DNA of 64,000 nucleotides, taken from the IMG/VR virus record IMGVR_UViG_2667527592_000002, one strand, 5' to 3'. A program made the translations under genes and the position numbers. Below, piece by piece: positions 28,368 through 62,044 of this stretch (the first letter of the stretch is position 1; every line of letters starts with the position of its first letter). Below the pieces are notes generated by a model that had not been told where the DNA came from, made no database searches, and saw only the letters and a list, made by a program, of their open reading frames with translations. Source of the DNA: a virus. Its lineage: Duplodnaviria; Heunggongvirae; Uroviricota; Caudoviricetes.

Positions 28368-28582
28368 GTAAACAAAATGAAGTTTTATGTTATAAAAACA
28401 ATTAACTACATCAACATGATTTAGGCCAAATTTCGGTCAAAAAATAAAATCCACAAAAAGTGGTTGACACTATTTTGGAAATCACAAACTACACATAATC
28501 CATCGCGCTAACGGCTCCCGTTGAAGGTTCTTTTGACGATTAACTTTCAGCCGAAGCGCGGTAGGGAGTCATAACGCCAAAG

Positions 28583-41385: not shown

Positions 41386-41625
41386 ATCCGTTCCTCGGTG
41401 TGATTTTGGTATCAAAACGGTTCCAGATAAGAGCCTTTTTGATGCGGGACAGGCTCTATAATGGAGTCATGAATGTTTGGCAAAGTATAACATCAATCAG
41501 ACCAAATACACCTTATATTGCATCCTATTTAACACGAAATCAGCCCTAAATTGGAACCAGATACAAAATTGCACCATAACAGCACCTAACTGGTGCCAGA
41601 TTAACACTAATTAGACACCATTAAG

Positions 41626-41654
41626 GCATAAAAAAGGCTGCAATTTGCAGCCTT
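41626..41654 (-). terminator. rho-independent terminator downstream of parR
   Basis: AAGGCTGCA-ATT-TGCAGCCTT perfect 9-bp stem; T5 follows on minus strand. Confidence 0.6.
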
Positions 41655-41672
41655 ACACCAGCACATCTTCTG

Positions 41673-42017
41673 TCAATCAGGTAGAGAGTCAGCCAGATTG
41701 CGCGCCGACGCGCTTTTGGCAACAACTTGCTCCTTCACTGGCTCAATGGAGGCAGGGCGCTCCTCAACCGCAGCTGGTAGTTCCAGGAAGGATGCCAGCA
41801 TTTTTCGGATCAGCTCCGGGTTGTTGTCTTCGGTCAGCAGGGAAGCCAGTAATCCTGGAAGCCTGCTATCGACTTCTCCCAGCGCAAGCCCTGCCAACAA
41901 TGCGGTTCTTGCCATATCGCTATGTTTTTTTATCTTCTCGCTCGCCGCCTTTTCATTGGCATAAGCCTCTGGGCGAAGATAAATCATCACTTTCTTACGT
42001 TCCTGAGACATGGACAT
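41673..42017 (-). CDS. parR: ParR-like adaptor (type II partition)
   Basis: 114 aa directly downstream of parM; ARTALLAGLALG resembles ParR N-terminal region. Confidence 0.6.
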   Translation of the reverse strand: MSMSQERKKVMIYLRPEAYANEKAASEKIKKHSDMARTALLAGLALGEVDSRLPGLLASLLTEDNNPELIRKMLASFLELPAAVEERPASIEPVKEQVVAKSASARNLADSLPD

Positions 42018-42024
42018 TACCTCG

Positions 42025-42981
42025 TTAACCGATTGCTTTCAGGCCATGAACAAGAGCAAGTTGCGGGTCATCCGCCACGAAGAAACGGTCATCACGAATA
42101 TTAACTTGCTCGCGAATTGCATCTGCCACCAGCGGTGCGCCACCACCGATCACCATGACATGCGTATATCCTTTAAAGTCGCCAATCACATCAAGAACTC
42201 GGGTACGCAGACGGTCAATGCTTGCGGCAATGGCCTTTTTCACATCACCAATCGCTGATGGGTCATTGATATTGTCGTTCAGATAATCTTCATCGTGGCG
42301 GTTAATAATGAGCTGATCAACATTGTAATTTGACGTTTCGGTATTGGCCCTTGCAAGTGCTTGCCTTACTTCCCTGGTGACCAGTGATACACCAAGATTC
42401 GAATCGCCAAAAACACGGGAAACTGCCGTCATTTGCCCGGCGACCATTGAAACATCAAGGGTAGTTCCACCCAAATCGACGATAAGAACAGAATGGGCAG
42501 GGTTCAGATTGTCGCACAGGCCAATTCCTGCCGGAATAGACTCCGGTCGTACCGTAACTTTCTTAATCGTGAACACATTGCCTTTATTCAGCGTGACGGG
42601 GCGCATAAGGCTGGCTTTCTTGCGCTCGATGTTATCGAGATTGTATTGCGCGTCGTCGTCGTAAAACTCCGCCAGAGGCAGCGTGACCACAATTTCTACT
42701 TCCTGCGGCTCAATACCGCTTGTCAGCAGGGCATGGTGAACAGCCAGGACGTTAAGCGGGCTGTATTGCCATTCCACGTTATTCGTCGGCAGAACATCTG
42801 GCGAGATCAAATCATACGAATACTTCTCGTCGTCAATGACATAGTTAAACGGCTTGCCAGCACCAAATGTTGCTGACCATCCGCGCTTAAAGCTGTTAGG
42901 ACTGATGTGAGTGCGAGTTTCCCCGTCGTGCTCCCACAGCATTTTGATATTGGTTGAACCATCATCGATAAAAATGCGCAT
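42025..42981 (-). CDS. parM: ParM/StbA actin-like segregation ATPase
   Basis: MRIFIDDGSTNIK ... HISPNSFKRGW ... VLAVHHALLTSG collinear with R1 ParM; ATG 42981 after GGAG. Confidence 0.85.
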   Translation of the reverse strand: MRIFIDDGSTNIKMLWEHDGETRTHISPNSFKRGWSATFGAGKPFNYVIDDEKYSYDLISPDVLPTNNVEWQYSPLNVLAVHHALLTSGIEPQEVEIVVTLPLAEFYDDDAQYNLDNIERKKASLMRPVTLNKGNVFTIKKVTVRPESIPAGIGLCDNLNPAHSVLIVDLGGTTLDVSMVAGQMTAVSRVFGDSNLGVSLVTREVRQALARANTETSNYNVDQLIINRHDEDYLNDNINDPSAIGDVKKAIAASIDRLRTRVLDVIGDFKGYTHVMVIGGGAPLVADAIREQVNIRDDRFFVADDPQLALVHGLKAIG

Positions 42982-45496: not shown

Positions 45497-45889
45497 TCAT
45501 TGTCGCCATGCATTTTTTAACTCAGGAATATCTGCCATTTCAATTAACTTGCGAAGTCCAGCACTGACTTTCCCATTGCCAACCATAGCAAGCCAATCTC
45601 TTACAGCTTTCGGCATGTAGAGCGTTGCAGTTACCGGCTCTTCAACCCTGGCAGGACATCCGCATACAGGCCATTTAATTGATTCCATAACTTCGGATGC
45701 CGGGGTGAGGGCGGGGACATTGAGTATATCTCTACCAGAAAACTGGATAACGATCCGTTCAGCGAGCGAGAGTATCTCACTTTCGGCAAGAATTGATGCC
45801 AACTGCGCCTCAACAAGAAAGCGACTTGTTGTGTTCAGAGAGTGGCTCTTAGCGCCATTTTTATACGAAACAAAGATTCGATACGCCAT
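45497..45889 (-). CDS. hypothetical protein (130 aa)
   Basis: ORF track; operator-like motif 12-31 bp upstream. Confidence 0.45.
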   Translation of the reverse strand: MAYRIFVSYKNGAKSHSLNTTSRFLVEAQLASILAESEILSLAERIVIQFSGRDILNVPALTPASEVMESIKWPVCGCPARVEEPVTATLYMPKAVRDWLAMVGNGKVSAGLRKLIEMADIPELKNAWRQ

Positions 45890-45900
45890 AACTCTAATGA

Positions 45901-45920
45901 TTTGTGTTAGAAAACTAAAA
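45901..45920 (-). promoter_or_regulatory. operator-like motif (minus strand TTTTAGTTTTCTAACACAAA)
   Basis: Recurring motif between divergent 45889 and 46048 genes. Confidence 0.45.
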
Positions 45921-46047
45921 TTAAATCACATAACAACATGCGTGTTAATAGATTTTATTTTACTAAACCTATTGACTAAATCACAAAGTAGGTATTGTTA
46001 GCCCGTCAAAAGAACCTTCACGCCGCGCCCGAATTTAGGGCTTAACC

Positions 46048-47745
46048 GTGAATAAAAACATTCAGCCAGCTCGTGATCGCGAGCGCGAGATTATGAATCG
46101 GGCGGCAAGCGTCATGGCTATGACCGTCGATCCGACCACCGATGCAGCAGGCAACATGATTGCTGACCAGGCAGTAATGATGGAAAACCTGGATAAAGCA
46201 ATCCAGAAAGTGCCTATGTTTGAAGGCGTAAATCCAGAGGTCGCTCGTCAGATCACTGGTGGGTGGGCTATGTCTCTGCATGAGTATAAACGTCAACATG
46301 GTCATTACCCGGCAAGTGACATCCTGGCGAACGCACACATGGCTCTTGAACGCCTGATGACTGAATGTGCCAGTGATACCCATGAAGGCACGGGTAAGGC
46401 AATGTTTGAGTCTGTCGCGCAATCAATGCGTAGCTCTGACGGCGTAATGAAAGTTGCTCAATATGCTGCTCTAATTCTGCCTGCCTCTCTGGGCGCTGCT
46501 ACCAGTGATGCCTGTACTTTTGTTCCTTGTGATCGTGACGAGTCAAATATTTATGAACTGGTCAACGTAGCAGGCACAAAATTCGGCACCTTCAAACAAG
46601 GTGACGAACTGAATATGCAGTCAGCTGGTGTTTATTCTCAAATGAAGCGCCTGTATACCCTTTCCACTAAAGGGGATGGCAGCACCAAAACCTTCCAGTT
46701 CGACATCCAAAATTTTGAGGGACAATCCTGCCCGCTTCGCGCTGGTTATAACAAACTGCTGATCAACCGCAAACCGTCCAAAGTTGACGACGGCGATGGC
46801 AACCTTTATTTCAATGCTAAAGACAGCAAAGGCAATGCTTTCTCAGCGACTGCCAAAGTTGCCTATGACACTGGTGTCATTGACATTACATTTACCCAGG
46901 CTCCGCCAGAAGGTACTGAAATTGCTGTTCAGGTCGAAATTAACATCGAGCGCAATCCAAGCCTGATTCCTGTGATCAACCAGGCTATGCGTAAGTACGA
47001 AGTTCGTCCGTCCCAGTACGTAATTGCTTCCGAACACACGGTAATGTCCGCATCCGATTTAAGCCGTGAGCACGGCCTTGAATTAGCGGCACTTCAGTTC
47101 TCCGCGATGCGTAACTGGATCTCCCATGAAACCGACATCATGCGTCTGCGCACCCTGGTATTCCATACCGTTTATGGTCGTGAATTTGATGTGGCTCTGC
47201 CGGAAGCTCAAAACTATGAGTCCTGGGTCGGCCTCCTGCGTCACGTAGTAAACGCTCTGTCTCAAGAAATGGCAAATCGTACCCTGACAACGGGTATTCG
47301 TGGCGGCTTTGCTGGTGGTGACGCCGCGAACTTCCTGCGCTCTCTGCCTCCACAGCACTTCCAGATCGCACCAGGTTACGTTCAGTCGCCGTATGTACAG
47401 TACATCGGCACCCTGTTTGGCACGATTCGTATTTACGAAGTGCCGCAACCTGTCTGTGAGCAATTCCAGGCACAGGGATATGACTTCGGGCTGGATGACA
47501 TCTTCTTCTATGGGCGTGGCGAAGGCATCGGTAAAGCCGGTCTGATTGCTGGTGATGCAGTCCCTGCAATCCCTTACGTGCATGAAACCAATCCGTCTCT
47601 CGTTAACCGTACCACTCTCTGGGGCAGTGCCATCAACGAAGTACATCCTCGCAACGGTGAAAACTACTTCACCCGCCTGCGTCTGACTCGTGCCAAAGAA
47701 GGCGCTATCGACATGCTGTCAGGCAAGGTTAACGAAAAAAAGTGA
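46048..47745 (+). CDS. putative major head (capsid) protein
   Basis: 565 aa; first large ORF of virion block, followed by Ig-like ORF; by size and position only; GTG start uncertain. Confidence 0.4.
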   Translation: MNKNIQPARDREREIMNRAASVMAMTVDPTTDAAGNMIADQAVMMENLDKAIQKVPMFEGVNPEVARQITGGWAMSLHEYKRQHGHYPASDILANAHMALERLMTECASDTHEGTGKAMFESVAQSMRSSDGVMKVAQYAALILPASLGAATSDACTFVPCDRDESNIYELVNVAGTKFGTFKQGDELNMQSAGVYSQMKRLYTLSTKGDGSTKTFQFDIQNFEGQSCPLRAGYNKLLINRKPSKVDDGDGNLYFNAKDSKGNAFSATAKVAYDTGVIDITFTQAPPEGTEIAVQVEINIERNPSLIPVINQAMRKYEVRPSQYVIASEHTVMSASDLSREHGLELAALQFSAMRNWISHETDIMRLRTLVFHTVYGREFDVALPEAQNYESWVGLLRHVVNALSQEMANRTLTTGIRGGFAGGDAANFLRSLPPQHFQIAPGYVQSPYVQYIGTLFGTIRIYEVPQPVCEQFQAQGYDFGLDDIFFYGRGEGIGKAGLIAGDAVPAIPYVHETNPSLVNRTTLWGSAINEVHPRNGENYFTRLRLTRAKEGAIDMLSGKVNEKK

Positions 47746-47892
47746 TGGTGGCGAACGTGTCGGTATCACCAACGTCACTTGACGTAGATGAAGGTGAAAC
47801 TATCGCCGCGAACACTTCAAAGGCACAGAAAAAAACAAAGCAGAAGTAAGGCAAAAACACGCCCCTGAATAAGGGGCGTTCAGGAGAAAAGA

Positions 47893-48171
47893 ATGGCAAA
47901 CATTCAAGTAACTATCTCGCCATCTGACGCAACAGACAAATCTTTCACTGTTGAGTCCGATCACCCTGAAATTGTCCAGGTTGATGGCACTACATGTACC
48001 GCTCTTAAGGCCGGGCAGGCAGTGCTGACAATCAAAACCAATGACGGCAATAAAACCGCACAGTGCACAGTCACTGTTAGGGAGGCACCTAAAAGCGTAA
48101 GCGCCGTCAGTGTTGAACCAACTACGAAAGAAGTAACCGTAGGCGACAACTTCACGGTAAGCGAATCCTGA
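47893..48171 (+). CDS. bacterial Ig-like (Big_2-type) domain protein
   Basis: 92 aa; TISPSDAT ... VTVREAPKSVSAVSV pattern. Confidence 0.5.
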   Translation: MANIQVTISPSDATDKSFTVESDHPEIVQVDGTTCTALKAGQAVLTIKTNDGNKTAQCTVTVREAPKSVSAVSVEPTTKEVTVGDNFTVSES

Positions 48172-48238
48172 TCAGAGGCTGCCCATTAACCGTGGGTAGC
48201 CTTGCCTCGTTCTCTCGCTTTAGAGGATAAGAACCAGC

Positions 48239-49897
48239 ATGAATAAGATTAGTTTTTCGGTAGGGCAGGCAGCTGGCGTTGCTGTAATGTCAGTAAATGC
48301 TGACGCTACCCTCACCAATACCAGCGGTGGCGCTTCCGTCTTTGCTGGGCTTGTAATATCGCGTCGTGGCGCACCGGGTAAGGTACTGAAAGTTGACGAT
48401 ACGACTTATCAAAGCGTATTAGGTTCACCGATTCACCCTCGCCTGGGCGCGGCATTTGAACCATACCGCCACGTGGAGCGTGCAGTAAAAGGCGGTTCTG
48501 GATATGTCGTTCGAGTTTGCGCTAAAGACATGAAGGTACCGGGTATTTCTGTTTCCGTTGTGGGCAGAGCAAAAGCGGCAAAGGCGAGTAAAGAACTTTC
48601 CGTTGAACCAACTGAAACCACAGTAAATCCAGGTGACACATTAAGCGTTGGTGTTGCTTCAACAGCAACGACTCAATCAGTGGTCTTCACACCAAAAGAG
48701 ACGCCTCAGATAAAAGGTGATGAGAAAGCATTATTCTTCATCAAAGATGGTGATGCATCTCAAAATCGCACGTTATCACTAACCCGCGATAATGAAGAAA
48801 GCGAACTCTTTACGCTGACGCTGAAAGAAAAACAAACTGATGGGTCCATTGAGGTACTGGAAAGCCACCAGGTGTCCTTCAATCCAGAAGGCACTAACGA
48901 CATGGGCCAACCTGCATGGATTCCGACACTGCTTGAAAGCCAGTCCACTCGCATTGGTGCCGTGCTGGCAGATGATGCAGAAGCATCTGCTGCTCAACTC
49001 ATTTTTGAGGATGTAGCTTTTGAAGGTGGTACTGATGGCGATCTGTCCACAATTAACACTGAAGACTATCTGGAAGCATTAAAGGTTCTCGAAGCTTCAG
49101 AGGTTAATTACACCGCATTGCTGTCACTGGGTTGTTATGACGCATCCGCCTTAGCCGCAATCAAAAAGCTGGCTGAAGATGTTCGCGTAGACATGTTCTA
49201 TGACCTGAAGGGTAACCAGACACCTGAAAACGCTATTTCAGAAGCGAAAAGCCATAGTTTTGGCGGCTCACATCAACCAAGCCGTTACTACTTCCCGCTT
49301 TCCTGCCGAGATACCTTCACTGGGATGAATGTCGTCTATGGCATTAGTTGCGACGCATTCGTAGCGAAAGCAAAAGGAGTTGCGCTGGTACCGGATGTTG
49401 GTGGTTGGCATTACGCACCCGCAGGTATATCACGCGCGATTATTGATCGACAGAACATTGCCCGAATTCCAAATATCGGTGCGGTTGATCGTGAAGCGTT
49501 CGTTCTTGCGCGCATTAATCCAGTTTCAGTTGCTGCTGACGGGTCCGTTTACATTGACGACTCTTTAACAACTTACAGCAAAAACAACTATCTGCGATTC
49601 CAGCATGTGTCTTCCTTGATGAACGCCATCGCCAGAAATTTCTATGACGTAGCTCAGGCGATTAAGCACGAACCGGATGGCATTACCAAAGAAACGCTCA
49701 TGAAAGCAATGACTGAATTGCTTGACCGTTACGTTGCAGCCGGTGCGCTGGTTACTCCACGTGACAAATCCCAGGGCGAAGATCCATATGTTGTTCAGGT
49801 TGTCCAAAAGGACATCGATCTGTGGGAAGTGTCCTGGTCTGTTTGTCCGACCGGTACAGCTCGCCGAATCGTCGGTAAGCCAATTCTGATGCGCTGA
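48239..49897 (+). CDS. putative tail sheath protein
   Basis: 552 aa; AGAGG RBS; by size and position in a contractile-tail gene set only. Confidence 0.4.
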   Translation: MNKISFSVGQAAGVAVMSVNADATLTNTSGGASVFAGLVISRRGAPGKVLKVDDTTYQSVLGSPIHPRLGAAFEPYRHVERAVKGGSGYVVRVCAKDMKVPGISVSVVGRAKAAKASKELSVEPTETTVNPGDTLSVGVASTATTQSVVFTPKETPQIKGDEKALFFIKDGDASQNRTLSLTRDNEESELFTLTLKEKQTDGSIEVLESHQVSFNPEGTNDMGQPAWIPTLLESQSTRIGAVLADDAEASAAQLIFEDVAFEGGTDGDLSTINTEDYLEALKVLEASEVNYTALLSLGCYDASALAAIKKLAEDVRVDMFYDLKGNQTPENAISEAKSHSFGGSHQPSRYYFPLSCRDTFTGMNVVYGISCDAFVAKAKGVALVPDVGGWHYAPAGISRAIIDRQNIARIPNIGAVDREAFVLARINPVSVAADGSVYIDDSLTTYSKNNYLRFQHVSSLMNAIARNFYDVAQAIKHEPDGITKETLMKAMTELLDRYVAAGALVTPRDKSQGEDPYVVQVVQKDIDLWEVSWSVCPTGTARRIVGKPILMR

Positions 49898-49941
49898 TTT
49901 ATAACCCCCCGCTAAATGATGCGGGGGAAAGAGGTTTGAAT

Positions 49942-50676
49942 ATGAAAAATTATACTGCTGATCCTTTTATGCGTGCGATTTTCGGTTCTGGCTGCTTTGA
50001 AAGCGGTGATAAATCCACGCAGGACAATAATGATAACGCCATGCTGGAAAGCGCAGGACAGAAAGGGAAGGACACTCAACCAAAGCCCAAAGACGACATT
50101 GAAACCGCAATGATGGAAGCGGTTGAATCCCGTGCACAAGGTGATATGCGCAGCCTGGCAGCTTCCATGCTTGCTGGTTGGGTTGAAGATGGTGATCCGG
50201 AGGCTGACTCATTTGATGCATTAGCAATCACTATGGCTGGTCTGGCTGATATCGATGAAGACACCGATTTCACCGATGAGCAAATCGATGCTTATAACGA
50301 TGCTCTCGCAGCTCTTGCTGATGCAGCTGTTGCGCTTGGCGCTGATCAGGACGATGTAACCGAAATGATCGACGATGAAGATGACTCAGCTGCCGAACGT
50401 GTTTATGACGCTCTTTCCGAAAGCGACACCGACATGATGGAAACAGCTATTGCCATTTACACCGTTGCTGGTGGTGATAGCGCAATGCTGGAAGCGGTAC
50501 GTAAAAAAGTGGTTCGTGATGGCAAGGTTACCATCATCCGTAAACGCCCGCGTCCTCGCCGCATGACGTCATTGCAAAAACAGGCGCTGAAAAAAGCACG
50601 CCGCAAAGCACATACATCCGTAGCGAATATCAACCGCAAAAAATCAATGCGCATTCGCAAAAAACGCGGTTTGTAA
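49942..50676 (+). CDS. highly acidic protein with strongly basic C-terminal tail
   Basis: ATG 49942 after GAGG; long D/E-rich segment then RKRPRPRR...RKKSMRIRKKRGL. Confidence 0.5.
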   Translation: MKNYTADPFMRAIFGSGCFESGDKSTQDNNDNAMLESAGQKGKDTQPKPKDDIETAMMEAVESRAQGDMRSLAASMLAGWVEDGDPEADSFDALAITMAGLADIDEDTDFTDEQIDAYNDALAALADAAVALGADQDDVTEMIDDEDDSAAERVYDALSESDTDMMETAIAIYTVAGGDSAMLEAVRKKVVRDGKVTIIRKRPRPRRMTSLQKQALKKARRKAHTSVANINRKKSMRIRKKRGL

Positions 50677-50725
50677 GTGACATAGGCCGCCTGCAAAGGT
50701 GGCCTCTACCTGGGAGAAATAGCGT

Positions 50726-51316
50726 TTGATTTGCGGCGCGATAATGCCTGACGGAATAAGTCCGTTAATGAAGGTTTATATCCTCTCTTCAGAGGATATG
50801 GTCGTCGGTTATATCGGTGAAGGATCTACCGCAGAACTGTCATCAATGTGGCAATCACCATTTGAAAACCAGTCAGTAGGAGGTTTGCTTGGCGGTATTA
50901 GCGCTGCGGCTGGCTCTCTTGCAGATACGCTTCAGACCGCAACCGGCGTAACAACAAAAACCCTCTTCAACTCAATGCTTGTTTGGGAAGGTCAGCAACC
51001 GCCTGAATTTAATCTGGTAATTGATTTCATGGCGACAACGAACGCGCAACTTGAAGTGAACGCAGCCATTACAGCATTGCTGAAGATGGAATCGCCGGAA
51101 CTGAACAATGTAGCGCCATTCGGTCGTCGCCCTGAGACAGTAACGTTAAACATAGGTAGGAACATAGCCCTTACCGACGTTGTTATCAAAAGCGTGAGTT
51201 ACCAACTGGACGCCCCACGCACACCGGAAGGCTATTTCACTCATAACACGGTAACCCTGCAATGCAGCGGAAACACCTCGATTAACCGTAGCAACATATC
51301 ATCTGTTTTTGTGTAG
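50726..51316 (+). CDS. hypothetical virion protein (196 aa)
   Basis: ORF track; start uncertain. Confidence 0.4.
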   Translation: MICGAIMPDGISPLMKVYILSSEDMVVGYIGEGSTAELSSMWQSPFENQSVGGLLGGISAAAGSLADTLQTATGVTTKTLFNSMLVWEGQQPPEFNLVIDFMATTNAQLEVNAAITALLKMESPELNNVAPFGRRPETVTLNIGRNIALTDVVIKSVSYQLDAPRTPEGYFTHNTVTLQCSGNTSINRSNISSVFV

Positions 51317-51324
51317 GAGTATTT

Positions 51325-51816
51325 ATGTCCGGTTTTGCAAATACAAAAGCCGATATCGCTTTTCTGAAATCCCGGTTGAACAAAAACCTGGCAGCGGGCG
51401 AAAAACTTATTGGTTCAGAATTCTGGATGACTATTAAAGGTTACGAAAAACTATCTGTACTTGTTCGTACCACTCAGTTGCCGGAAATGACACGCGAAGA
51501 CGTGGAAGACTATGGTCCTGGCGGCATGAAGATCAACCAGCACGGGCCATTGCGTAACTCAGGTGAATTCCAGGTCACCTGCTCTGAAACCATCGAAGGG
51601 GATGTTCTGGCAGCCGTAAAACAAATGGTATATGGCAAAGAATATCTGGAAATTACCTTACAGGCAGCGGCTGAATCCAATAGCGGTAACCATAAAGGTC
51701 TGATCCGCACATATTATCACTGCAAAGTGTATTCCGACGCAGTGGACTTCTCCACCGAAGACGTAACAGCAGTCGTTAAGCCTTCCCTGCGTATTGTTTA
51801 CAACTGGGTAGAGTGA
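51325..51816 (+). CDS. putative tail tube protein
   Basis: 163 aa; size and position only. Confidence 0.4.
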   Translation: MSGFANTKADIAFLKSRLNKNLAAGEKLIGSEFWMTIKGYEKLSVLVRTTQLPEMTREDVEDYGPGGMKINQHGPLRNSGEFQVTCSETIEGDVLAAVKQMVYGKEYLEITLQAAAESNSGNHKGLIRTYYHCKVYSDAVDFSTEDVTAVVKPSLRIVYNWVE

Positions 51817-51868
51817 TCTCTTTCCCGCCCTTGTGGCGGGAACTCCTTGTATTTGAGTTGTAGGTACG

Positions 51869-52420
51869 ATGACACCAACCGAATTATTAGAAAGCGTTAA
51901 AGCACGATTTAATCCACTGCTTGTGCGTGAAGAAGAAACGCTGAAAGCCTTCTTGATCAAAGCTCTGACCACGTATCAAGACAGGGCAGGGGTAGTGAAA
52001 ACGTTAAAACTTGAAAGAGCTGGTGGTACTGCAATCCCGTTGCCAGAAGATTATCTCTCTCTGGTTCATGTTACCGACAACAACGGCCTGTTGGTCTATT
52101 CGGATGAATTATCCGGCTTTATTGAATTAGAGCTAACAGGTTCAGAACGCTGGCCTTTTCGAATGCTGTATCTGGTTAATCTACGCGACAGAAAGCTGGA
52201 TGAATGGCAAGTGCCTCCTGCAATCATTGGAATGCTGGAGGAATATCTGGAGGCGCTTATCAATGTAAGAAATGTCGCCCGGCAGCGTAGAGCGTCCATC
52301 GACGGGAAATTTGACTACTCCGATCTTCCCGATGAAGCCACGCTATATGCCCGCGTGCAGGAGATTGAGGAAAAAATGTCCTCAAACCGGGCCATTATTC
52401 CGGGGGCTACCATTTTTTAA
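51869..52420 (+). CDS. hypothetical tail protein (183 aa)
   Basis: ORF track. Confidence 0.45.
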   Translation: MTPTELLESVKARFNPLLVREEETLKAFLIKALTTYQDRAGVVKTLKLERAGGTAIPLPEDYLSLVHVTDNNGLLVYSDELSGFIELELTGSERWPFRMLYLVNLRDRKLDEWQVPPAIIGMLEEYLEALINVRNVARQRRASIDGKFDYSDLPDEATLYARVQEIEEKMSSNRAIIPGATIF

Positions 52421-52435
52421 CGCTGGAGGCGCAGA

Positions 52436-53143
52436 GTGAGTATTTTCAGCAGCGTTGGTAGAACGTTGACCACCGCATTGTCATTCAACACGAAATCATT
52501 CACCAGCAACCTCATTAGCGACATTCTTGATAAAGCCATATCAGGCGGCGGGGTAAGCGGGAATTACAGTAGCGATATTGTCTACGGAAAAAATATTGTT
52601 GCTGCCGCTATGCGTATCCGTTACGCCCAGGGGTGGCAGTGGACCGTTGAAGTGGATGGTCTGAACGGCTTCGATATGTTCGTGAAGGATATCACCTACA
52701 GCAGTGGGAACATCGAGACAGAAAGCAAGGTGATCGGCAGCGTAGAATTCAGCAAGCCAACCTATGTTAGCGCCGGACCGGTCACTATGACCGTGAGGGA
52801 TACCGAAGATGGCAAGATCATGGACTGGTTCAAAGAGCGTCGTTCTCGTGTAACAAATCCTGATGGAACAATAAACCTTCCTCCGGAATATCTGATGAAA
52901 ATCCGTGTCTACCGGGTAACTCAGGACGGCGGAAAAGAACTGGAAGAAGAAATGCGCGTATTTCCTACACAACTTGGGGAAATCACTCGCTCACGTGATC
53001 AGGTGTCAGAGTTCTTGTCATACCCAATCACTTTCCAGAAATACACATCCGCAGGCTCAGGTGTTTCTGCTTTGGTCAACGGTGCCGCTGGAATGGCTAC
53101 AAGTGCGTTAAAGGGGGCTGTGAGTGGAGTGATCAAATTCTGA
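52436..53143 (+). CDS. hypothetical tail protein (235 aa)
   Basis: ORF track. Confidence 0.45.
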   Translation: MSIFSSVGRTLTTALSFNTKSFTSNLISDILDKAISGGGVSGNYSSDIVYGKNIVAAAMRIRYAQGWQWTVEVDGLNGFDMFVKDITYSSGNIETESKVIGSVEFSKPTYVSAGPVTMTVRDTEDGKIMDWFKERRSRVTNPDGTINLPPEYLMKIRVYRVTQDGGKELEEEMRVFPTQLGEITRSRDQVSEFLSYPITFQKYTSAGSGVSALVNGAAGMATSALKGAVSGVIKF

Positions 53144-53233
53144 ATAGCTTTAATTATGTGTGCTGGAGGGTTGCTCATTTCCCGTCAGCACCCACGCCCT
53201 CAACGATAGCGGGTAGGGAAGGAAGCGCAATTT

Positions 53234-53528
53234 TGAGGGCATTTTTTACATCATCAATCCATCTGTAATGAAGGCATTCTTTACACATTTCAATAATATC
53301 AATCAGTTAACACCGTGAATGATAATGAAAAAGCACAATAAGAATGCCAGAAACACACGATATTGGTTGAGGGCAATTTTTACATAAACCTTAAATATCA
53401 ATAGGTTATATAAAAACACAACTTGCTAATAACAAGATACATGCAATTAAGATGTAAAAATTGCCCTCAATTGCCGATCGTTAAGGGCAAATTCTACACC
53501 TTGAGAGGGGTGTAAAAATTGCCCTTAA
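53234..53528. repeat. incA-like iteron array downstream of repA (about 6 copies, both orientations)
   Basis: 19-bp units TGAGGGCA(A/T)TTTTTACA(T/C)C at about 53234, 53270, 53367, 53451(rev), 53482, 53509(rev); last overlaps repA stop. Confidence 0.6.
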
Positions 53529-54280
53529 GACTGCTGATAGGTAAATTTTATCCTGGTAACTTTGCCGCCTTCCGTCACCTCTGAGAAGACTATTTTCATT
53601 TTTGTATTTTTTTCAATCTCTGCTACAGCCTTCGTTAAAAAACTTCTCTTAAATTCGGCATACCGCTGATAGCTTTTTGGTAACCCATAACGCTCCCGCA
53701 TCCATTCGACGCCAAGTATGGCAAAGCCGCTTCCATCATCCTTCCTGTACTGGCATAAGGACTCATAAAGCCGCATAGAATAAGGATTTGTAAGGCGAGA
53801 CACTTCGGTAAAATTCAGCCTTGTGAATCTCTTATCAAGCAGAGTAAAAAACGGCATGAGATATGGATTAAGATGAATAATGTAAGTCCCGCGCCGTGGT
53901 GAATAGGCATCCTTAATCATCCAAGGATAAGACTCATAACTATCTTCTGATTCGGTCGATTCATCAGGGTTATATATCGTAACTTTCTTCTCGCTAAGCC
54001 CTGAAATGGCCTTACGAATATCCTTGCTGGCTTCAGCAGAGGGCAAATTATACATCTCTGCATATTCGTTGACCGTCAACTCACAGGCACCTGAACCAAG
54101 AACGCCATCCTTAGAAGCATAGCGAAGTCTTCCCACCACAATAAACAACAGTCGCTTTTGGTCGCGAGTCAGGTGATAAGCAGCCTCCGTGATCTCATTG
54201 GCTTGTGCCAAACTACGACTAATAGGTGTCGCTGACTCAATCAGGCTGACGGCTTTTGCTGTTAATTCCGCTCTGTTCAT
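53525..54280 (-). CDS. repA: iteron-binding replication initiator RepA (Rep_3 family)
   Basis: C-terminal MRERYGLPKSYQRYAEFKRSFLTKAVAEIEKNT ... KVTRIKF typical of Rep_3 initiators; flanked by iterons; ATG 54280. Confidence 0.85.
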   Translation of the reverse strand: MNRAELTAKAVSLIESATPISRSLAQANEITEAAYHLTRDQKRLLFIVVGRLRYASKDGVLGSGACELTVNEYAEMYNLPSAEASKDIRKAISGLSEKKVTIYNPDESTESEDSYESYPWMIKDAYSPRRGTYIIHLNPYLMPFFTLLDKRFTRLNFTEVSRLTNPYSMRLYESLCQYRKDDGSGFAILGVEWMRERYGLPKSYQRYAEFKRSFLTKAVAEIEKNTKMKIVFSEVTEGGKVTRIKFTYQQS

Positions 54281-54304
54281 AACCCTGTGTGATCCTTCAA
54301 ATGG

Positions 54305-54421
54305 TGAGGGCAATTTTTACATCACTTTGAGGGCAATTACTACACCTTTTGAGGGCAAATCTTACACCTTTTGAGGGCAAATCTTACACCGATCGTATTT
54401 AATTGAGGGCAAATCTTACAC
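54305..54421. repeat. oriR-like iteron array: five direct 19-bp iterons
   Basis: TGAGGGCAA(T/A)T(T/A)(T/C)TACA(T/C)C at 54305, 54327, 54349, 54371 (22-bp register), 54403; inverted copy at 54545-54564. Confidence 0.7.
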
Positions 54422-54517
54422 CAGTCTCCTCTACAGCCCGCGCCACTACTGGCTCCAGCGACGCCTAAAAAGGATCTAAAAAGGATTAAAAATGGAAAAA
54501 GGTTTATAAAAATACTC

Positions 54518-54526
54518 TGTGGATAT
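54518..54526 (-). promoter_or_regulatory. DnaA-box-like 9-mer (ATATCCACA)
   Basis: 8/9 match to TTATCCACA in AT-rich stretch between iterons. Confidence 0.35.
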
Positions 54527-54668
54527 GTGAGTAGCGTCACTTAAGGTGTAAAAATCACCCTCAATAATCGCTTCACGACCGGCAAAGATCTTCATTCAAT
54601 CCCCATCGCAAATCACACACTCCCTATCCTCTGGAAAATGAACAGATACCTGCTTTTCGGAGGAATAA

Positions 54669-55490
54669 TTGAACATTCCAAAATTCCCATTGCCTTCCCG
54701 TCCTGAGACAGAAATTCAGTTCCACGCCCCTACCGTGAAGGATGCGCTGAAATATTCTGACCTGAACCCGGCAGAAGATGAGGCAACTACTACAGAGTAC
54801 CTTAACTCTATGCAGGATGGTGAAATTAACGACAGTGCTAACTGGACAGTTCAGGATCGCAGAACTGCTCTTTGGTGGATATTTGTTAATTCGCGCCCCG
54901 ATGCAGTAATGACTTACTCCTATGAGTGCAGTCACTGCGGTAATACGCATCACGCCGATATAAACCTGGGCGATCTGGCTCAAACAGTAGAGATACTCAC
55001 TGTACCGCCTTACGTAAAAACCAACGTACCGGTAAACGGTGTACCAACTGACTGGATACTTAAACCATTAACCGGGAAAGGCGCGGAACTCCTTGAACGT
55101 ATGCGTGCGTCACTTCCTGATATGAAAAGCCCTGAATACAGTGCAGGCGTGGCCCGTATGCGCATTGCAGAACTCGCTTTATGCACGGCACTGGACGACG
55201 ATCCGGAAGACTTCACTCAAGCAGCTAACCGACGCTTCGACATCATTGAAAGCATGGCGCTTGAAACCGAGTTTACACCGCTTGTGGCTCGCATACAGCT
55301 TATGCAAAAAGACCTACGCCACGGCCTGAAAATGTCTATTGAGAGAGGCACAAGCCGACTGATCCTGCCTCCGCAACATTGCAAAAACGCTAAGGAGGGT
55401 GCAGATGTGACAACCACACTGTACGTCCCCTTTCTCAATAGAGAGTTTATCCCATCAATTAGATCTGAATGGATGGCTAACCATTATTAA
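54669..55490 (+). CDS. hypothetical protein (273 aa)
   Basis: ORF track. Confidence 0.5.
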   Translation: MNIPKFPLPSRPETEIQFHAPTVKDALKYSDLNPAEDEATTTEYLNSMQDGEINDSANWTVQDRRTALWWIFVNSRPDAVMTYSYECSHCGNTHHADINLGDLAQTVEILTVPPYVKTNVPVNGVPTDWILKPLTGKGAELLERMRASLPDMKSPEYSAGVARMRIAELALCTALDDDPEDFTQAANRRFDIIESMALETEFTPLVARIQLMQKDLRHGLKMSIERGTSRLILPPQHCKNAKEGADVTTTLYVPFLNREFIPSIRSEWMANHY

Positions 55491-55504
55491 CAACCTGACT
55501 CTAT

Positions 55505-58500
55505 ATGGATATCAGCCCGTTAGCGACGTTGAACAATTACCGCAATGGCGAGCACTCCATATGTCAAAAGCCCTGGAAGAAAAATACAAAGCTCAAGCCG
55601 GGAAACGTTGATCGCGCTGGTAAAAGAGAGGTTATTTTGAAAGAAAATAAAGACCGTATCGCAATAATTGACGCTATTCAGGAAGCGAGCACAAACGAAC
55701 TTAAAGCTCTTGCTGAGGTAAAAGACGCCATTCTTTCTGGGGCAAGCACCATAACTCAACAGGACGAAAGGCAAGGCAGAGTTAGCAACAGACTATCACG
55801 CAGGCGTAAAGACTACGAGCAAAGTACATCTGATAGCGTTAGAGATGTCCAAACTAACCCATATAAAAAACGTCTCCCTGCTAAAAAGGAGAGGGCACCG
55901 ATAAACCAAACCGTGGACCGCTCTATCGTTGCAACGAACACACCAGAAAGTGTTCGTTCTGTGCAATCACGTCAGAACATCCGAAAATCGGACGGTTCTA
56001 TACCGGTAGCTGCTAATTCAACTCCTCTTGAACCACAATCCCCCCAAAGTCTAAAAGGCCCGCTGCGGGATAGTAATGGACGTTTTGTATCCCAGAAAAG
56101 CAATGAGGATGTAGCCAGAAAAAAAGAACTGCAGAACGCACGTAAAGCCGACGCAAAATTACAAGCTGGCTTTCTCAGAAAGCTGGGTTCCATTATGGGG
56201 GTAGATGGCAATCAGTCTTCCAGTGAAGAGTCTTTAACAAATGCAGCTGGTGTCGGTGCTGGTGGGCCGTTATGGATGGCAGCTCGTGGCATGTACGACA
56301 TAACTAAAGAGATCACAGGTAAAGCAGAATCTCTTAAAGAATGGGTAGAAAAGGGGAAAAAAGAAACATCAACCTCGAAAGCGATATCACCAGTAATTAC
56401 TTATCCGGCGGCGGTGAATTCTCAAAAAGCAACATCTGCAAAAGCGTTCAATAACGCTGTTGAGACAAAATCCGCACAAGCAGTAGAAGAGCAAACCAAA
56501 ATCCTTCAGACCAATGACAACAAAATAATTGATGGTCTGGAAAATGTTTCTGACGAGATAGTTAAGCTTCGGAAATCAGTGTCTTCTGGAAATAAGTTCG
56601 GCTTAAGTGATCTCTGGAAAAATCGAGCAAGCAGAAGAAATAAAATCAATATTGGTGATCAGACGGGAAAAAATAAACGGAACAAATCGAAAAGGAAAGG
56701 CCGCAATCTTGGGAAAAAAGCACTCTCCGCTGGCGAAAAAGTTGCTGCCGGTAGCGCTGCGGCTGGCACTGGTGTCGGAGCAGCAAAAGTAGTTAAAAAT
56801 AAGATCAGCAAACCCAAAGATGTAAGCACTATCAGCGATACATCAAAGGGGATTGCAAAGGAAACAAAAAATACTGCTAAGGCCGTGAAGTCAGCTGGTG
56901 TTGTGGCTGAAGATGCCACCATTAAAACCGGCGAAGCCATTGCAAAGAAAAAAACTGAATCTGTAGCCCTCAAAAGTGCAGCAAAAATAGGTGTTAAATC
57001 AGCAGCATCCACAGCGGCAAGAGCGGTCCCTATCATCGGTTCGCTGGCAATGGCTGGATATGACGCCATAGATGGTTACACAGATACAGAGGCGCAAAAG
57101 GCAGCCTTTGGTTTAAGTGACGATGATGCTGTATCCGAACAGAAAAAAACGGCTTACGCAACAGCTAATGTGCTCGATATGGGGGGCTTGGTGTCGGGCG
57201 CAACGAACTTGATAGGAAAAGGAATTTCTGCGCTAGGATTTGAAAGAGCAGGTGAAAAACTTCAGAATTTTGATACCGGAGATATTGCTCGTGGTGTTAA
57301 CGGCGCGGTAGATATCACCAAATCTGTTTTTGGTAGCCTTAAGGATACATTTTTATCCACTGACGAAAACACGAAACAAGTAAAAAAAGCTGTTGAAGAC
57401 GGCACCAAAAAAACTGTCGATGCGATTCATTCTCTAGGTGAACAATTACAAGGTGGGCGTAATGGCGAGGATGGAGTTGGTGAGCACGGATATACTTCTC
57501 CAACTGAATTTAGTGCACCTGCCAACAACACCATTGCAGCGGATCTGAATATTGGCGGCAGCAACGCTAAAAACCGCAATTACCGAAATAATAATCTCGG
57601 CAATCTTGTTTTTGCCAACCAGGAAGGGGCGACGCTGGAATCGCCAAATGCAAAAGGGGAACAACGTTTTGCGCGATTTAACACACCTGAAGAAGGGATC
57701 AGGGCACTGGCAAACCAGGTTTCCAGCTATTACAACGGCACCAGTGCCGCAGCGGGATATCAGAAGTTACAGACGGTATCCAGCATCATTTCAAAATGGG
57801 CACCGCCAAATGAGAACAATACTAACCAATATATTGATAACGTCAGTAAATATCTTGGTGTATCGCCTAATGAAAAAATAGATGTCAGCAACCCAGAGGT
57901 TATGACGCAATTAGTTCGTGCAATTGCGACGAAAGAAGGCGGAAATCCGGCAGTTAATAATGAGTTCATTAAGAATGCACTTGGAGCATTTAACACAAAC
58001 ACTGGTCGATGGGAGGGACAATTCTCTGACGAAACATTGGCGCGGATTAATAAAATTCAGAAAGAAAATGGTGGTCAGCTAATTGCCCGCGATTCGCAAT
58101 ATAGTGTTGGTCGCAAGGTAAAATATGCTAATGGAAAATCTCCAGCTCAACCAGTTTTGAATGCCGTTCCGACAGCAACACAACAGCCAATTGAGGTTGC
58201 ACAACATGCCCAGGCAGTCAAAAAGCCACAAAAAACAGGCAATCAATCGCAACCGATTAATCCAGAGAATGTTGATGTTAATACTGGCTCGCCATCAAGT
58301 CTGCTTGAGAGATTAATCGCTATAAATGACAGCGGGGTAGGTAATTTATTTGGAGGTGCGGCTACCAGCCTTGCTGGTACAAGCCTTGGCCTGATTAAGG
58401 ATTTTGCGTCGGCGACTTCGTTTGGTTCTATATCTTCGCTTTCCGAAAAAGCGAAAGGAATGGATCAGGCTCTTACTGAAAAGATATCCAGCTTAACCGG

Positions 58501-59287
58501 TAAATCTTTTGGATTTCAAAAAGCAAGCCAGGTAACTGATATAAGAGACGCTTTACAAAAAAGACCAAAAGCTGAACGCGATATGCCTTCAGTGGATCTT
58601 CTTTCCGGTGTTTCTTCGGCAAGTGAGAGTGAAAAAATCTCTGTAAACTCAAGGGGGATTCCAGTTTATGACAATGGATACAAGGTAATTGATGGTGAAG
58701 ATAAGGGGGTACTTGGCTCTTTGTTTGACTCGTCATTAACAGGTCTGAAACGTATTAGCTCTGCTGTGTTACCTGCAATTGGCGATAACGTTTCACGACT
58801 TATTGGTGGGGTAGATGGCACTGGCATTGTTAATGATTTGGTTTATCAGGCTACTGGGCAGAACTCAACAATTGCCAGGGCTATTAGCCCGCTTACCAGG
58901 AGCGCCGGTAGTTGGCTGAATAATGGTATTCAACAAACCGCAGATAGCATTAGAGGTATATCAAACGAAGCCAATAATGCCATATTTGGCTCTGCGTCAG
59001 CCGTGCAAGAACCTTTTCTTGCTATGCCACCACAGCTTCCTACTGTAACAGATCTCGCACGAAGCGGAATAAGACAACCATTAACTACTGACACTATAAA
59101 TAACGATCCTGCTATGTTGAAGGCGCTGGATAACATCTGCTCTATCCTGAACGACCTTCTGAATGTGAACAAGAACAATACAAAAGGCGATCCGGATAAG
59201 GTTGTCAAAACATCGCAGCCGCAACCGCGACCACGTGCTAGCACAACTATTAATGACCCGTCGCTGGATGCTCTGCTTGAGGATTAA
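55505..59287 (+). CDS. tail tape-measure-like protein (Sit-like), possible cell-wall hydrolase region
   Basis: 1260 aa, largest ORF, just upstream of baseplate genes; Ala/Gly/Lys-rich repeats; central NRNYRNNNLGNLVF... block. Confidence 0.55.
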   Translation: MDISPLATLNNYRNGEHSICQKPWKKNTKLKPGNVDRAGKREVILKENKDRIAIIDAIQEASTNELKALAEVKDAILSGASTITQQDERQGRVSNRLSRRRKDYEQSTSDSVRDVQTNPYKKRLPAKKERAPINQTVDRSIVATNTPESVRSVQSRQNIRKSDGSIPVAANSTPLEPQSPQSLKGPLRDSNGRFVSQKSNEDVARKKELQNARKADAKLQAGFLRKLGSIMGVDGNQSSSEESLTNAAGVGAGGPLWMAARGMYDITKEITGKAESLKEWVEKGKKETSTSKAISPVITYPAAVNSQKATSAKAFNNAVETKSAQAVEEQTKILQTNDNKIIDGLENVSDEIVKLRKSVSSGNKFGLSDLWKNRASRRNKINIGDQTGKNKRNKSKRKGRNLGKKALSAGEKVAAGSAAAGTGVGAAKVVKNKISKPKDVSTISDTSKGIAKETKNTAKAVKSAGVVAEDATIKTGEAIAKKKTESVALKSAAKIGVKSAASTAARAVPIIGSLAMAGYDAIDGYTDTEAQKAAFGLSDDDAVSEQKKTAYATANVLDMGGLVSGATNLIGKGISALGFERAGEKLQNFDTGDIARGVNGAVDITKSVFGSLKDTFLSTDENTKQVKKAVEDGTKKTVDAIHSLGEQLQGGRNGEDGVGEHGYTSPTEFSAPANNTIAADLNIGGSNAKNRNYRNNNLGNLVFANQEGATLESPNAKGEQRFARFNTPEEGIRALANQVSSYYNGTSAAAGYQKLQTVSSIISKWAPPNENNTNQYIDNVSKYLGVSPNEKIDVSNPEVMTQLVRAIATKEGGNPAVNNEFIKNALGAFNTNTGRWEGQFSDETLARINKIQKENGGQLIARDSQYSVGRKVKYANGKSPAQPVLNAVPTATQQPIEVAQHAQAVKKPQKTGNQSQPINPENVDVNTGSPSSLLERLIAINDSGVGNLFGGAATSLAGTSLGLIKDFASATSFGSISSLSEKAKGMDQALTEKISSLTGKSFGFQKASQVTDIRDALQKRPKAERDMPSVDLLSGVSSASESEKISVNSRGIPVYDNGYKVIDGEDKGVLGSLFDSSLTGLKRISSAVLPAIGDNVSRLIGGVDGTGIVNDLVYQATGQNSTIARAISPLTRSAGSWLNNGIQQTADSIRGISNEANNAIFGSASAVQEPFLAMPPQLPTVTDLARSGIRQPLTTDTINNDPAMLKALDNICSILNDLLNVNKNNTKGDPDKVVKTSQPQPRPRASTTINDPSLDALLED

Positions 59288-59292
59288 TACAG

Positions 59293-59667
59293 ATGCTTTA
59301 TGAAATAGACGCAAGACTTCAAACGAATGAGAGCGGTGTCATTATTGCAGAAGGAAGTACCGCAGCATGGATGGCCCGACTTGACGAGTGGCTACGAACC
59401 CCTGAAGGGAGTGTTTATGGTTTACCCTCTTGGGGGAATCCAATGGAAGAATTTAAGCATGAACCATTCGGCTCTGAAACTTCGCACATAGTTGAAGTGG
59501 CTATTGAAGGGAGAATGATGAAAAAACTACGACAAGACTTGCCAGGTTTGGATGTGCAGGGGATTCGTTGCACATCAATTTCTGAAGATTCTTTATTAAT
59601 TAGTTTTTATGCGAAAGGTGGGAGCATGGATATTGTTATGCAGAAATCAAGTGGGGTGGGCGCGTGA
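59293..59667 (+). CDS. putative baseplate wedge protein (gpW/gp25-like by size and position)
   Basis: 124 aa; ORF track. Confidence 0.4.
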   Translation: MLYEIDARLQTNESGVIIAEGSTAAWMARLDEWLRTPEGSVYGLPSWGNPMEEFKHEPFGSETSHIVEVAIEGRMMKKLRQDLPGLDVQGIRCTSISEDSLLISFYAKGGSMDIVMQKSSGVGA

Positions 59668-61950: not shown

Positions 61951-62044
61951 TAATTCTTCCCCCGCATTTGGGGGAAGAACAACGGAAATCACAAACTGAG
62001 CATACTCTCCTTTGGTTCATTGCTTATGAAGGAGCTATGTTCGT

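Follow-up and report, generated by a model that had tools for sequence, protein, structure and literature searches.

The locus lies in a window of 64,000 nucleotides (the whole stretch of DNA analysed, referred to below as the 64-kb window), which is ~98.7% identical to phage D6 and to ~100 D6-like plasmids. Between a tail tube gene and a pmgB-like morphogenesis gene it houses an initiator gene bordered on both sides by iterons, with the following features.

52436..53143, plus strand: tub (tail tube) gene, the left flank, closing the late gene block that lies upstream; orf43 in the D6 annotation, ‘similar to P1 gene tub’
53155..53173, plus strand: orphan P1-type iteron 1, TATGTGTGCTGGAGGGTTG, its first 16 nt being those of P1 incA iteron copy 4
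53171..54612: exchangeable replicon cassette, delimited as the segment not in common with the backbone of the related genome L025
53178..53196, minus strand: orphan P1-type iteron 2, CGTGGGTGCTGACGGGAAA, inverted relative to iteron 1 and more degenerate, an invariant T being changed
53233..53528, both strands: six RepE-type iterons, corresponding to incC of F and incA of P1, with copies at about 53233 (minus), 53268 (minus, degenerate), 53367 (minus), 53453 (plus), 53481 (minus) and 53511 (plus)
53525..54280, minus strand: rep gene, ATG start, 251 aa, TAA stop; Rep_3 initiator and homologue of F RepE
~54037..54056, minus strand: iteron-like site TGTATAATTTGCCCTCTG within the rep coding sequence, of uncertain function
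~54304..54420, minus strand: five direct origin iterons of TGTAAGATTTGCCCTCAA type, located by consensus scan; the iterons of F ori2 align with them
54467..54517: AT-rich stretch, probably where the origin unwinds, with three AAAAAGGWT-type short repeats and one GATC (54473–54476)
54518..54526, minus strand: DnaA box ATATCCACA, matching the consensus TTATCCACA at 8 of 9 positions
~54545..54564, plus strand: distal iteron TGTAAAAATCACCCTCAA, past the DnaA box and inverted relative to the origin set; identical in the relatives L014–L017
54610..54630, plus strand: candidate D6-type late promoter AAATCACACACTCCCTATCCT, at the right border of the slot
54669..55490, plus strand: pmgB-like morphogenesis gene, the right flank; orf41 in the D6 annotation, ‘similar to P1 gene pmgB’

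The 251-aa Rep contains the two winged-helix Rep_3 domains by which Rep_3 iteron-controlled theta replicons are classed, scoring 102.7 bits for Rep3_N (2.9e-29) and 58.3 bits for Rep3_C (9e-16), both over the Pfam cut-offs, and the Rep_3-family gene proposed in a preliminary description of this DNA is therefore borne out. Chains of F-plasmid RepE in the PDB match the protein with an E value of 1e-73, and F RepE is 46.5% identical to it over the full alignment. The NCBIfam equivalog model for RepE returns 280.6 bits, below its cut-off of 342, and the protein is therefore a relative of RepE and not RepE proper; judged by sequence, it belongs to a sister lineage. The intact ORF is 98–100% conserved over hundreds of records, and its identical-protein cluster, named ‘RepB family plasmid replication initiator’, has 222 members. 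P1 RepA, which is a distant member of Rep_3 too (25.7 bits), gives no significant BLASTP match to it (E 0.057 over 44 residues), and a tblastn search of the 64-kb window found none of P1-type RepA, ParA, ParB and RepL. Across the 91 kb of the D6 record this is the sole annotated plasmid rep gene. The partition genes of D6 (StbA-like and ParA-like) are located ~10 kb from the replicon, with neither parAB nor sopABC adjoining it.

As rep is carried on the minus strand, the region preceding it is that of higher coordinates. Scanning of the 64-kb window for the iteron consensus GAGGGCAAWTYTTACAYC, at most 3 mismatches being allowed, gave 12 matches, every one at ~53235–54562; shuffled controls gave an expectation of 0.21 matches, and 12 were reached in none of 100 shuffles. 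Ahead of rep, the five direct iterons previously described are present, beginning at ~54306, 54329, 54351, 54373 and 54405, but the exact 22-bp register ascribed to them is not, the spacings being 23, 22, 22 and 32 bp. The iteron nearest the gene ends 23 nt ahead of the ATG, and the same number and geometry are found in L005 and L008, P1-like elements that carry RepE-type relatives at other genome positions. An AT-rich stretch with GATC and a DnaA-box-like 9-mer had also been described, and both are found, with a single GATC. The stretch aligns with the AT-rich region of F ori2, ‘tttttagatc’ included, and the block ATATCCACAGRG-TATTTTTATAA is near-invariant in the window, L005, L008, L014, L015 and F. 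The locus therefore has the architecture of a Rep_3 theta replicon, namely tandem repeats of ~17–22 bp at helical-turn spacing, an AT-rich region, a DnaA box and an adjacent rep gene, and all origin parts are conserved in relatives down to 71% protein identity.

Two iteron copies can be added to those listed before, the inverted distal one and the site inside the coding sequence. The latter was considered as a conserved regulatory site, a reading weakened by the fact that its conservation follows the peptide; every D6-like relative retains it, as does L008, and all of these retain the peptide EMYNLPS too, and it is gone in L005, whose peptide differs.

On the other side of rep, six iteron copies were counted, in agreement with the earlier count of about six in both orientations over the stop codon; the copy nearest rep (~53509–53528) overlaps the TAA. 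The position of this array is conserved in L014–L017. L008 has just one downstream copy, and since the arrangement of auxiliary iterons differs in this manner among relatives, a copy-control role is assigned to the array by analogy.

The flanking genes are those of the late region, the D6 annotation of tub and pmgB confirming that the replicon sits between tail genes. At the right border, AAATCACACACTCCCTATCCT is a candidate late promoter that may restart late transcription into pmgB-sit, an assignment made by analogy with the late promoters of P1. A D6-specific late motif, AAATCACAMA-N5-YATNNT, built from three intergenic regions, has 4 exact matches, all on the plus strand, against 0.11 expected by chance; three of these precede the capsid gene, pmgB and R, and the fourth is at 28479. 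The P1 late-promoter consensus AARTKACTW-N4-TANNAT has 2 one-mismatch matches, none near the locus and not above chance. A sigma-70 scan of 52900–54800 found no rep promoter. Read by eye, TGTAAAAAT in the proximal iteron is a possible extended -10 element.

In P1, tub and pmgB are separated by 14 bp, and sister backbones hold other replicons at this point, so that synteny supports the earlier idea of a replicon cassette. L025 runs parallel to the window in gene order over 45881–53170 (93.5%) and 54613–58014 (88%), and in place of the RepE-type unit it carries a 1366-bp replicon of P1/IncY type, whose RepA is 83.7% identical to that of P1. In another relative, L011, homology to the window ends at 53144 and resumes at 54610, and the intervening p0111-like replicon encodes an initiator of 294 aa with 41% identity to P1 RepA; orphan RepE-type iterons remain beside this newly arrived replicon. 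These comparisons support the view that replicons have been exchanged in the tub-pmgB gap, which serves as a slot for them. The gap (53171–54612) provides a concrete, well-bounded case of replicon exchange in phage-plasmids, with the order of events recorded by three alternative occupants together with orphan-iteron scars, and it fits the proposal that replicon swaps serve as an escape from incompatibility (PMC10879196). Sequence anatomy, homology and synteny, together with the other replicons that occupy the slot, indicate that the locus very probably serves a D6-like phage-plasmid as its plasmid-prophage replicon, that it is RepFIA-like, of the RepE/ori2 kind known from F, and that it is placed in a replicon-exchange slot.

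The two orphan iterons next to tub appear most simply as scars of a replaced P1/IncY replicon, because in L025, with a backbone 93–98% identical, they form the tub-proximal end of incA. The sequence of orphan iteron 1 recurs in the IncY-type replicon of L025, as the first of its incA iterons, and a better-preserved counterpart of orphan iteron 2 is present in L014, where the spacer is 23 nt against 4 nt in the window. A BLAST comparison of 53140–53240 with P1 matched on the iterons alone, with no longer remnant of incA. A terminator hairpin at 53162–53192 was also considered and rejected in favour of two P1-type iterons, since the fold is no better than that of shuffles (z -0.74), a T-run is lacking and L014 retains both arms at 23-nt spacing.

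An alternative view of these iterons holds that they, and larger sets in L005, are selected as RepA decoys that would hinder the replication of co-resident or incoming P1/IncY phage-plasmids, in partnership with the Phd antitoxin, which would neutralise P1 Doc, otherwise lethal to P1-losing cells, the two making up a natural displacement kit. Orphan iteron 1 falls wholly inside natural P1 iteron variation, and most D6-like records keep the pair, as does L014 with its other spacer; the pair is missing altogether from one D6-like lineage (L015, L016), and orphan iteron 2 is degenerate at an otherwise invariant position. L005 carries 6–8 P1-type iterons, one of them matching a P1 iteron at 19/19 positions, which sit with RepE-type iterons in duplicated 180-bp units; this composite array had no match among the plasmids searched, and its junction motif had 0 matches in viral contigs. 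The Phd and Doc of the window (11658–12250) are 98.6% and 92% identical to those of P1, P1 incompatibility is determined by iterons (PMC10999674), and engineered cassettes that combine replication control with neutralisation of addiction displace plasmids (PMC11983097). Against this, two iterons on a single-copy plasmid would be a weak dose, the end of the incA array in L025 accounts for them as scars, and L011 offers the mirror case, with orphan iterons of the RepE type left beside a new replicon. The decoy and antitoxin proposal, taken jointly, is accordingly judged unlikely. If it were true, the D6-like element could drive out a P1-like element already in the cell or withstand being driven out by one, as a natural counterpart to engineered plasmid-curing cassettes. 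The orphan iterons constitute a cheap experimental handle on the competitive consequences of replicon scars.

The preliminary description had assigned the whole unit to the P1 type (oriR/RepA/incA, IncY), acquired or relocated as a cassette. As a layout analogy this stands: origin iterons, rep and control iterons follow the annotated order of P1, the host element is a relative of P1, P1 RepA shares the Rep_3 family at a distance, and two real P1-type iterons lie at 53155–53196. As a statement of descent it fails, because Rep is a homologue of F RepE without a significant match to P1 RepA, and layout alone cannot identify P1, the order of origin, rep and control iterons being common to F (ori2-repE-incC) and P1. 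The iteron sequence, the lone GATC and the block of DnaA box and AT-rich stretch fit F ori2 and not P1 oriR, parAB is not adjacent, and the genuine P1-type replicon of this slot, in L025, is quite unlike. Descent from the P1 replicon is thus very improbable. No more credible is a decayed or auxiliary replicon, the element being kept by RepL or an unrecognised origin, for although L017 combines an IncY replicon with this one, its origin iterons down to three, and so demonstrates that the unit can decay beside another replicon, the rep ORF is intact and conserved, the full set of origin parts persists among divergent relatives, D6 has no other plasmid rep gene and the P1 annotation gives RepL the part of lytic initiator.

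For a functional replicon of the RepE/ori2 kind, the working of the parts, from the binding of Rep and the firing of the origin to the control of copy number, the repression of rep by its product and the identity of the promoter, can be inferred from the established iteron replicons of F and P1. Monomers of the 251-aa Rep would bind the five direct origin iterons and, jointly with host DnaA bound to the neighbouring box, would open the AT-rich stretch for loading of the host replisome. The six downstream iterons and the inverted distal one would titrate Rep and take part in ‘handcuffing’ with the origin iterons, keeping copy number low. The rep promoter probably overlaps the iterons, because the operator/promoter segment of the F type is absent and the last iteron lies 23 nt from the ATG, and binding of Rep would then repress its own gene, a P1-like topology. 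The replicon occupies, in antisense, the gap between two late transcription units, with the late-promoter-like box straight after it. An earlier IncY-type occupant of the slot would have been replaced, the pair of P1-type iterons next to tub being its scars.

The replicon itself is ordinary and already known. It is carried by ~100 circular plasmids of 75–95 kb at ≥95% identity, it is the only replicon cluster typed in the D6-like plasmid records inspected, and its iterons have been noted before, the D6-like pYU39_89 being described with ‘repB associated with iteron sequences’ (PMC6799933). The finding by itself therefore adds little, since the unit was annotated previously in D6 and the ~100 D6-like plasmids. 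The D6 record marks the gene as ‘similar to P1 gene repA?’, a description unsupported by the comparisons made here and, on their evidence, misleading. The RepE-type identity matters for plasmid typing, D6-type replicons being reportedly missing from the typing databases in common use (bioRxiv 10.1101/2025.09.12.675607). Kinship with F RepE/ori2, the F operator having been lost, predicts a different incompatibility behaviour, in which the replicon may cross-talk with IncFIA but would not, via its own Rep, do so with IncY; the outcome of incompatibility with IncFIA is uncertain, as the 5′ half of the iteron has diverged from that of F.

Among known systems, a close parallel is F RepFIA, which likewise combines DnaA box(es), an AT-rich stretch with GATC, a GC-rich spacer, direct iterons at ~22 bp, rep and control iterons, and whose ori2 aligns with the present origin column by column. 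The 3′ part of the iteron, TTGCCCTCA, is identical in the two, the 19-bp iterons of F being TGTGACAAATTGCCCTCA and those here TGTAAGATTTGCCCTCAA, whereas the 5′ half is TGTAAGAT/TGTAAAAA here and TGTGACAA in F, and the origin has five iterons in place of four. Control iterons begin at the rep stop in this locus, much as F incC starts 3 nt past the repE stop, although their mixed orientation is unlike F. The F repE operator is a half-iteron inverted repeat, GTGTGACAAT-N8-TTGTCACAC, over the promoter in a leader region of ~85 nt, and F has ~38–60 extra nt bearing this repeat; no repeat of this type occurs in the 23-nt gap between iteron and ATG here, nor in L005, L008, L014 or L015. In addition, sopABC adjoins the F replicon but not the D6-like one.

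The P1 replicon (oriR/incC - repA - incA, IncY), the prophage replicon of a related phage, shares the functional layout. Its likeness extends to a last origin iteron that abuts the gene, with a promoter probably embedded in the iterons here as PrepA is in P1, and to control iterons in both orientations that reach the rep stop codon. It differs in its iterons, of the 19-bp GATGTGTGCTGGAGGGAAA type against TGTAAGATTTGCCCTCAA for those flanking rep in the window, and in the number of GATC sites in the origin, which is five in P1, four in L025 and one here, within the AT-rich stretch. It also differs in location, being elsewhere in the genome beyond gene 23, and the D6-like replicon has no linked parA-parB-parS operon beside it. 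The p0111-type replicon is another alternative unit, with a relative in the same tub-pmgB slot (L011), and is known to swap into P1-family elements (PMC9603915); its initiator and iterons are other than those of the RepE-type unit. Phage D6 itself, with D6-like plasmid prophages such as pYU39_89, provides the nearest match, and the window adds one more member to their population. The orf42 region of D6 (NC_050154, 45453–46971) is identical to the slot at 98.7% of nucleotides along its full length, with gene, iterons and the position between tub (orf43) and pmgB (orf41) all the same and essentially no difference from the locus described here.

The gap at 53144-54668 is flanked by + strand genes at 52436..53143 and 54669..55490, annotated in the Escherichia phage D6 record as "similar to P1 gene tub" (orf43) and "similar to P1 gene pmgB" (orf41), respectively. 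Its sole long ORF, on the minus strand at 53525..54280 counted from the ATG, encodes a 251-aa protein containing both Rep_3 domains (Rep3_N 2.9e-29, Rep3_C 9e-16). The surrounding 18-19-bp repeat, GAGGGCAAWTYTTACAYC in its + strand form, occurs 12 times in the 64-kb window if as many as 3 mismatches are allowed, against a shuffle expectation of 0.21, and all 12 matches are confined to about 53235-54562.

Parts of the replicon, in the direction of the rep gene (minus strand)
54564-54547: inverted iteron, distal to the DnaA box
54526-54518: DnaA box ATATCCACA, consensus match 8/9
54517-54467: AT-rich stretch with three short repeats and one GATC
54466-54421: GC-rich spacer
54420-54304: five direct iterons, start-to-start spacings 32, 22, 22 and 23
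23 nt: gap from iterons to ATG
54280-53525, minus: rep
54054-54037, minus: iteron-like 18-mer TGTATAATTTGCCCTCTG inside rep, encoding EMYNLPS
53528-53233: six iterons in both orientations, the first overlapping the TAA stop codon

The preliminary description had reported iterons on both sides of a Rep_3 gene, an AT-rich stretch with GATC and a DnaA box, all of which are present as described, as is the downstream array in both orientations that overlaps the stop codon. Its gene arrangement also stands once rep is placed on the minus strand, while the 22-bp register it called exact is not quite so. Two iteron copies lie beyond its tally, the inverted one and the intragenic one. The latter is kept in L008, a P1-like contig, and throughout the D6-like relatives, and is absent from the P1/D6-like contig L005, whose peptide differs; constraint on this site may act at the protein or the DNA level.

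Over its full length the slot shares 98.7% identity with phage D6. About 100 circular plasmids of 75-95 kb, most of them non-mobilizable and found in E. coli, Salmonella and Shigella, match it at 95% identity or more. The D6-type plasmid replicon is already annotated and recognised, since the D6 record lists its ORF as orf42, "replication initiation protein, similar to P1 gene repA?", and a preprint from 2025 separates D6 repB from IncY and p0111, the replicon types of P1, and describes it as missing from typing databases (bioRxiv 10.1101/2025.09.12.675607). No second plasmid rep gene was found in D6, which does have a repL homologue. About 10 kb separate the replicon from the StbA-like and ParA-like partition genes of D6; coordinate mapping of D6 57140-59656 places the set (StbA/ParM-like, a small partner, ParA-like) at about 40465-42981 of the window, near upfB/upfC and unlinked to the replicon, unlike in F or P1.

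Pairwise comparison of the 251-aa Rep with P1 RepA, whose own membership of Rep_3 is marginal (25.7 bits), revealed no resemblance (BLASTP best E 0.057). Among solved structures it matches F-plasmid RepE with an E of 1e-73 across residues 21-249, and their identity in a four-way alignment is 46.5%. As the protein reaches only 280.6 bits with the NCBIfam RepE equivalog model, whose cut-off is 342, it would represent a sister lineage of RepE and not RepE itself. The label "P1-type" given earlier thus holds for an iteron replicon of P1-like layout but fails with regard to P1 descent.

Only 14 bp separate pmgB from tub in P1, whose plasmid replicon is found at another site, past gene 23 and adjoining parAB. 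A RepE-type unit fills the tub-pmgB gap of all sampled D6-like lineages (L002, L014, L015 and L016), down to approximately 74-85% nucleotide identity, suggesting that its occupancy is old within this group. In the IMG/VR contig L025, with Tub 98.3% and PmgB 96.7% identical to those of the window, the same gap contains a genuine P1/IncY replicon, comprising seven incA-type iterons after the tub stop, a RepA 83.7% identical to P1 RepA, five incC iterons set at intervals of 21 bp, as well as a DnaA box and four GATC sites. Homology between L025 and the window spans 45881-53170 and 54613-58014, and the points where it stops and resumes set the limits of the exchangeable segment at 53171-54612. A third replicon occupies the gap in L011, a D6-like E. 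coli plasmid (NZ_CP085065.1); its Rep, of 294 aa, shares 41% identity with P1 RepA, and its DNA is about 77% identical to a replicon on about 400 plasmids, which in the one record inspected (L020) sits at the canonical P1 position adjoining parAB, as described for p0111 (PMC9603915). Beside this p0111-like replicon, four RepE-type iterons are left as orphans at L011 4868-5097 together with the final nucleotides of the RepE-type gene, apparently the fresh scar of a replicon swap.

The RepE-type unit also occurs outside the slot. L008, whose capsid and sheath are 78% and 74% identical to those of P1, carries a 71%-identical Rep with a like five-iteron origin at the canonical P1 position, and L005 a 78%-identical Rep near darB-like and higBA genes. 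DNA homology of these two contigs with the window is limited to 53511/53515-54528/54533, that is, origin, rep and first downstream iteron. The synteny comparison with P1-like genomes that had been proposed earlier thus bears out the suggested cassette in the tail block: P1 lacks the gap and keeps its own replicon next to parAB, the RepE-type occupancy is old among D6-like lineages, the gap can contain other replicons, and the RepE-type replicon is also found elsewhere. Phage-plasmids have been proposed, as a general matter, to exchange replication genes, perhaps as an escape from incompatibility (PMC10879196); judged by sequence comparison, the tub-pmgB slot appears to be a clean instance, to which the slot boundaries, three alternative occupants and orphan-iteron scars are added here. 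As side observations, L017 (NZ_CP127005.1) at 1495-4077 is typed IncY plus D6-type, with 3/5 iterons in its D6-type origin and an IS5 transposase gene where pmgB is expected. L008 7195-8337, between rep and the capsid gene, holds a 380-aa ORF with no Pfam match and no P1 ParA similarity, which may encode an unrecognised partition or maintenance protein.

Immediately past the tub stop codon lie two further iterons, of a different type.

Orphan P1-type iterons
53155-53173, +: TATGTGTGCTGGAGGGTTG, first 16 nt equal to a P1 incA iteron, ending also found in P1 incC copy 12
53178-53196, minus: CGTGGGTGCTGACGGGAAA, more degenerate, in the opposite orientation to the first

In a BLAST comparison with P1, this stretch matched the P1 iterons alone, and no P1-type RepA is encoded by the window or D6. 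In L014 the pair is better preserved and its spacer is 23 nt long; none is found in L015, L016 or L011. The L025 incA array, at the tub-proximal end of its replicon, starts with the same "ctttaattATGTGTGCTGGAGGG" as the orphan, and its fifth iteron equals the second orphan of L014; the pair is therefore most simply read as the putative tub-proximal remains of an IncY replicon displaced by the RepE-type unit, with the RepE-type orphans of L011 as the reverse case. That they act as decoys binding a competitor's RepA is unlikely: the element does carry a Phd 98.6% identical to P1's, but the incA remains seen through L025 give the simpler account. The phd-doc addiction module (11658-12250, minus) is almost that of P1, with Doc at 92% amino-acid identity, and the D6 record likewise annotates phd and doc. 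In L005, 6-8 P1-type iterons are interleaved with RepE-type iterons and no P1-type RepA is encoded in its available 12.7 kb. Its duplicated units of about 180 bp after rep (5661-5740, 6757-7290; also in the compared contig L006) each combine an inverted P1-type iteron pair with RepE-type iterons, one P1-type copy matching a P1 iteron at 19/19.

The motif AAATCACAMA-N5-YATNNT has four exact matches in the 64-kb window, all on the + strand, against 0.11 expected.

Matches to the motif
28479-28499, +: fourth copy
45978-45998, +: directly upstream of the capsid gene
54610-54630, +: directly upstream of pmgB
61986-62006, +: directly upstream of tail-fibre gene R

Its form, a box, a short spacer and a -10-like hexamer, parallels P1 late promoters, and P1's own late-promoter consensus was not found in the window; the motif may be a late promoter specific to D6 and different from the P1 consensus. 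If so, the replicon would lie between two late transcription units and not inside one, and that promoter would coincide with the right-hand limit of the exchangeable segment at 54612. No terminator is evident after tub.

The non-coding sequences fit the F relationship of the protein. In F ori2, DnaA boxes (TTATCCACTTATCCAC) are followed by an AT-rich stretch containing "tttttagatct", and four iterons (TGTGACAAATTGCCCTCA) come after a GC-rich spacer. When the origins of the window, F, three D6-like relatives and two remoter ones are placed in a multiple alignment, ATATCCAC-RGRG-TATTTTTATAA stays in register, as does the TTGCCCTCA half of each iteron. The F incC iterons start 3 nt past the repE stop, and the first downstream iteron of the D6-type unit likewise lies at the stop of rep, which it overlaps. 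The chief difference is in the rep leader. The F leader extends for about 85 nt from the last iteron to repE and contains a promoter and an operator inverted repeat (GTGTGACAAT...TTGTCACAC), while the D6-type leader, in every relative examined, is 23 nt long with no operator inverted repeat. As no sigma-70 consensus was detected for rep, we infer the place of its promoter from this short leader: it would overlap the iterons or sit upstream of them, and P1 PrepA is annotated as overlapping its iterons. The origin, rep and control-iteron layout is common to F and P1; the D6-type replicon would combine F-like parts with a presumed P1-like autoregulatory topology, and its probable assignment to an F RepE/ori2 lineage devoid of the operator is what is added here.
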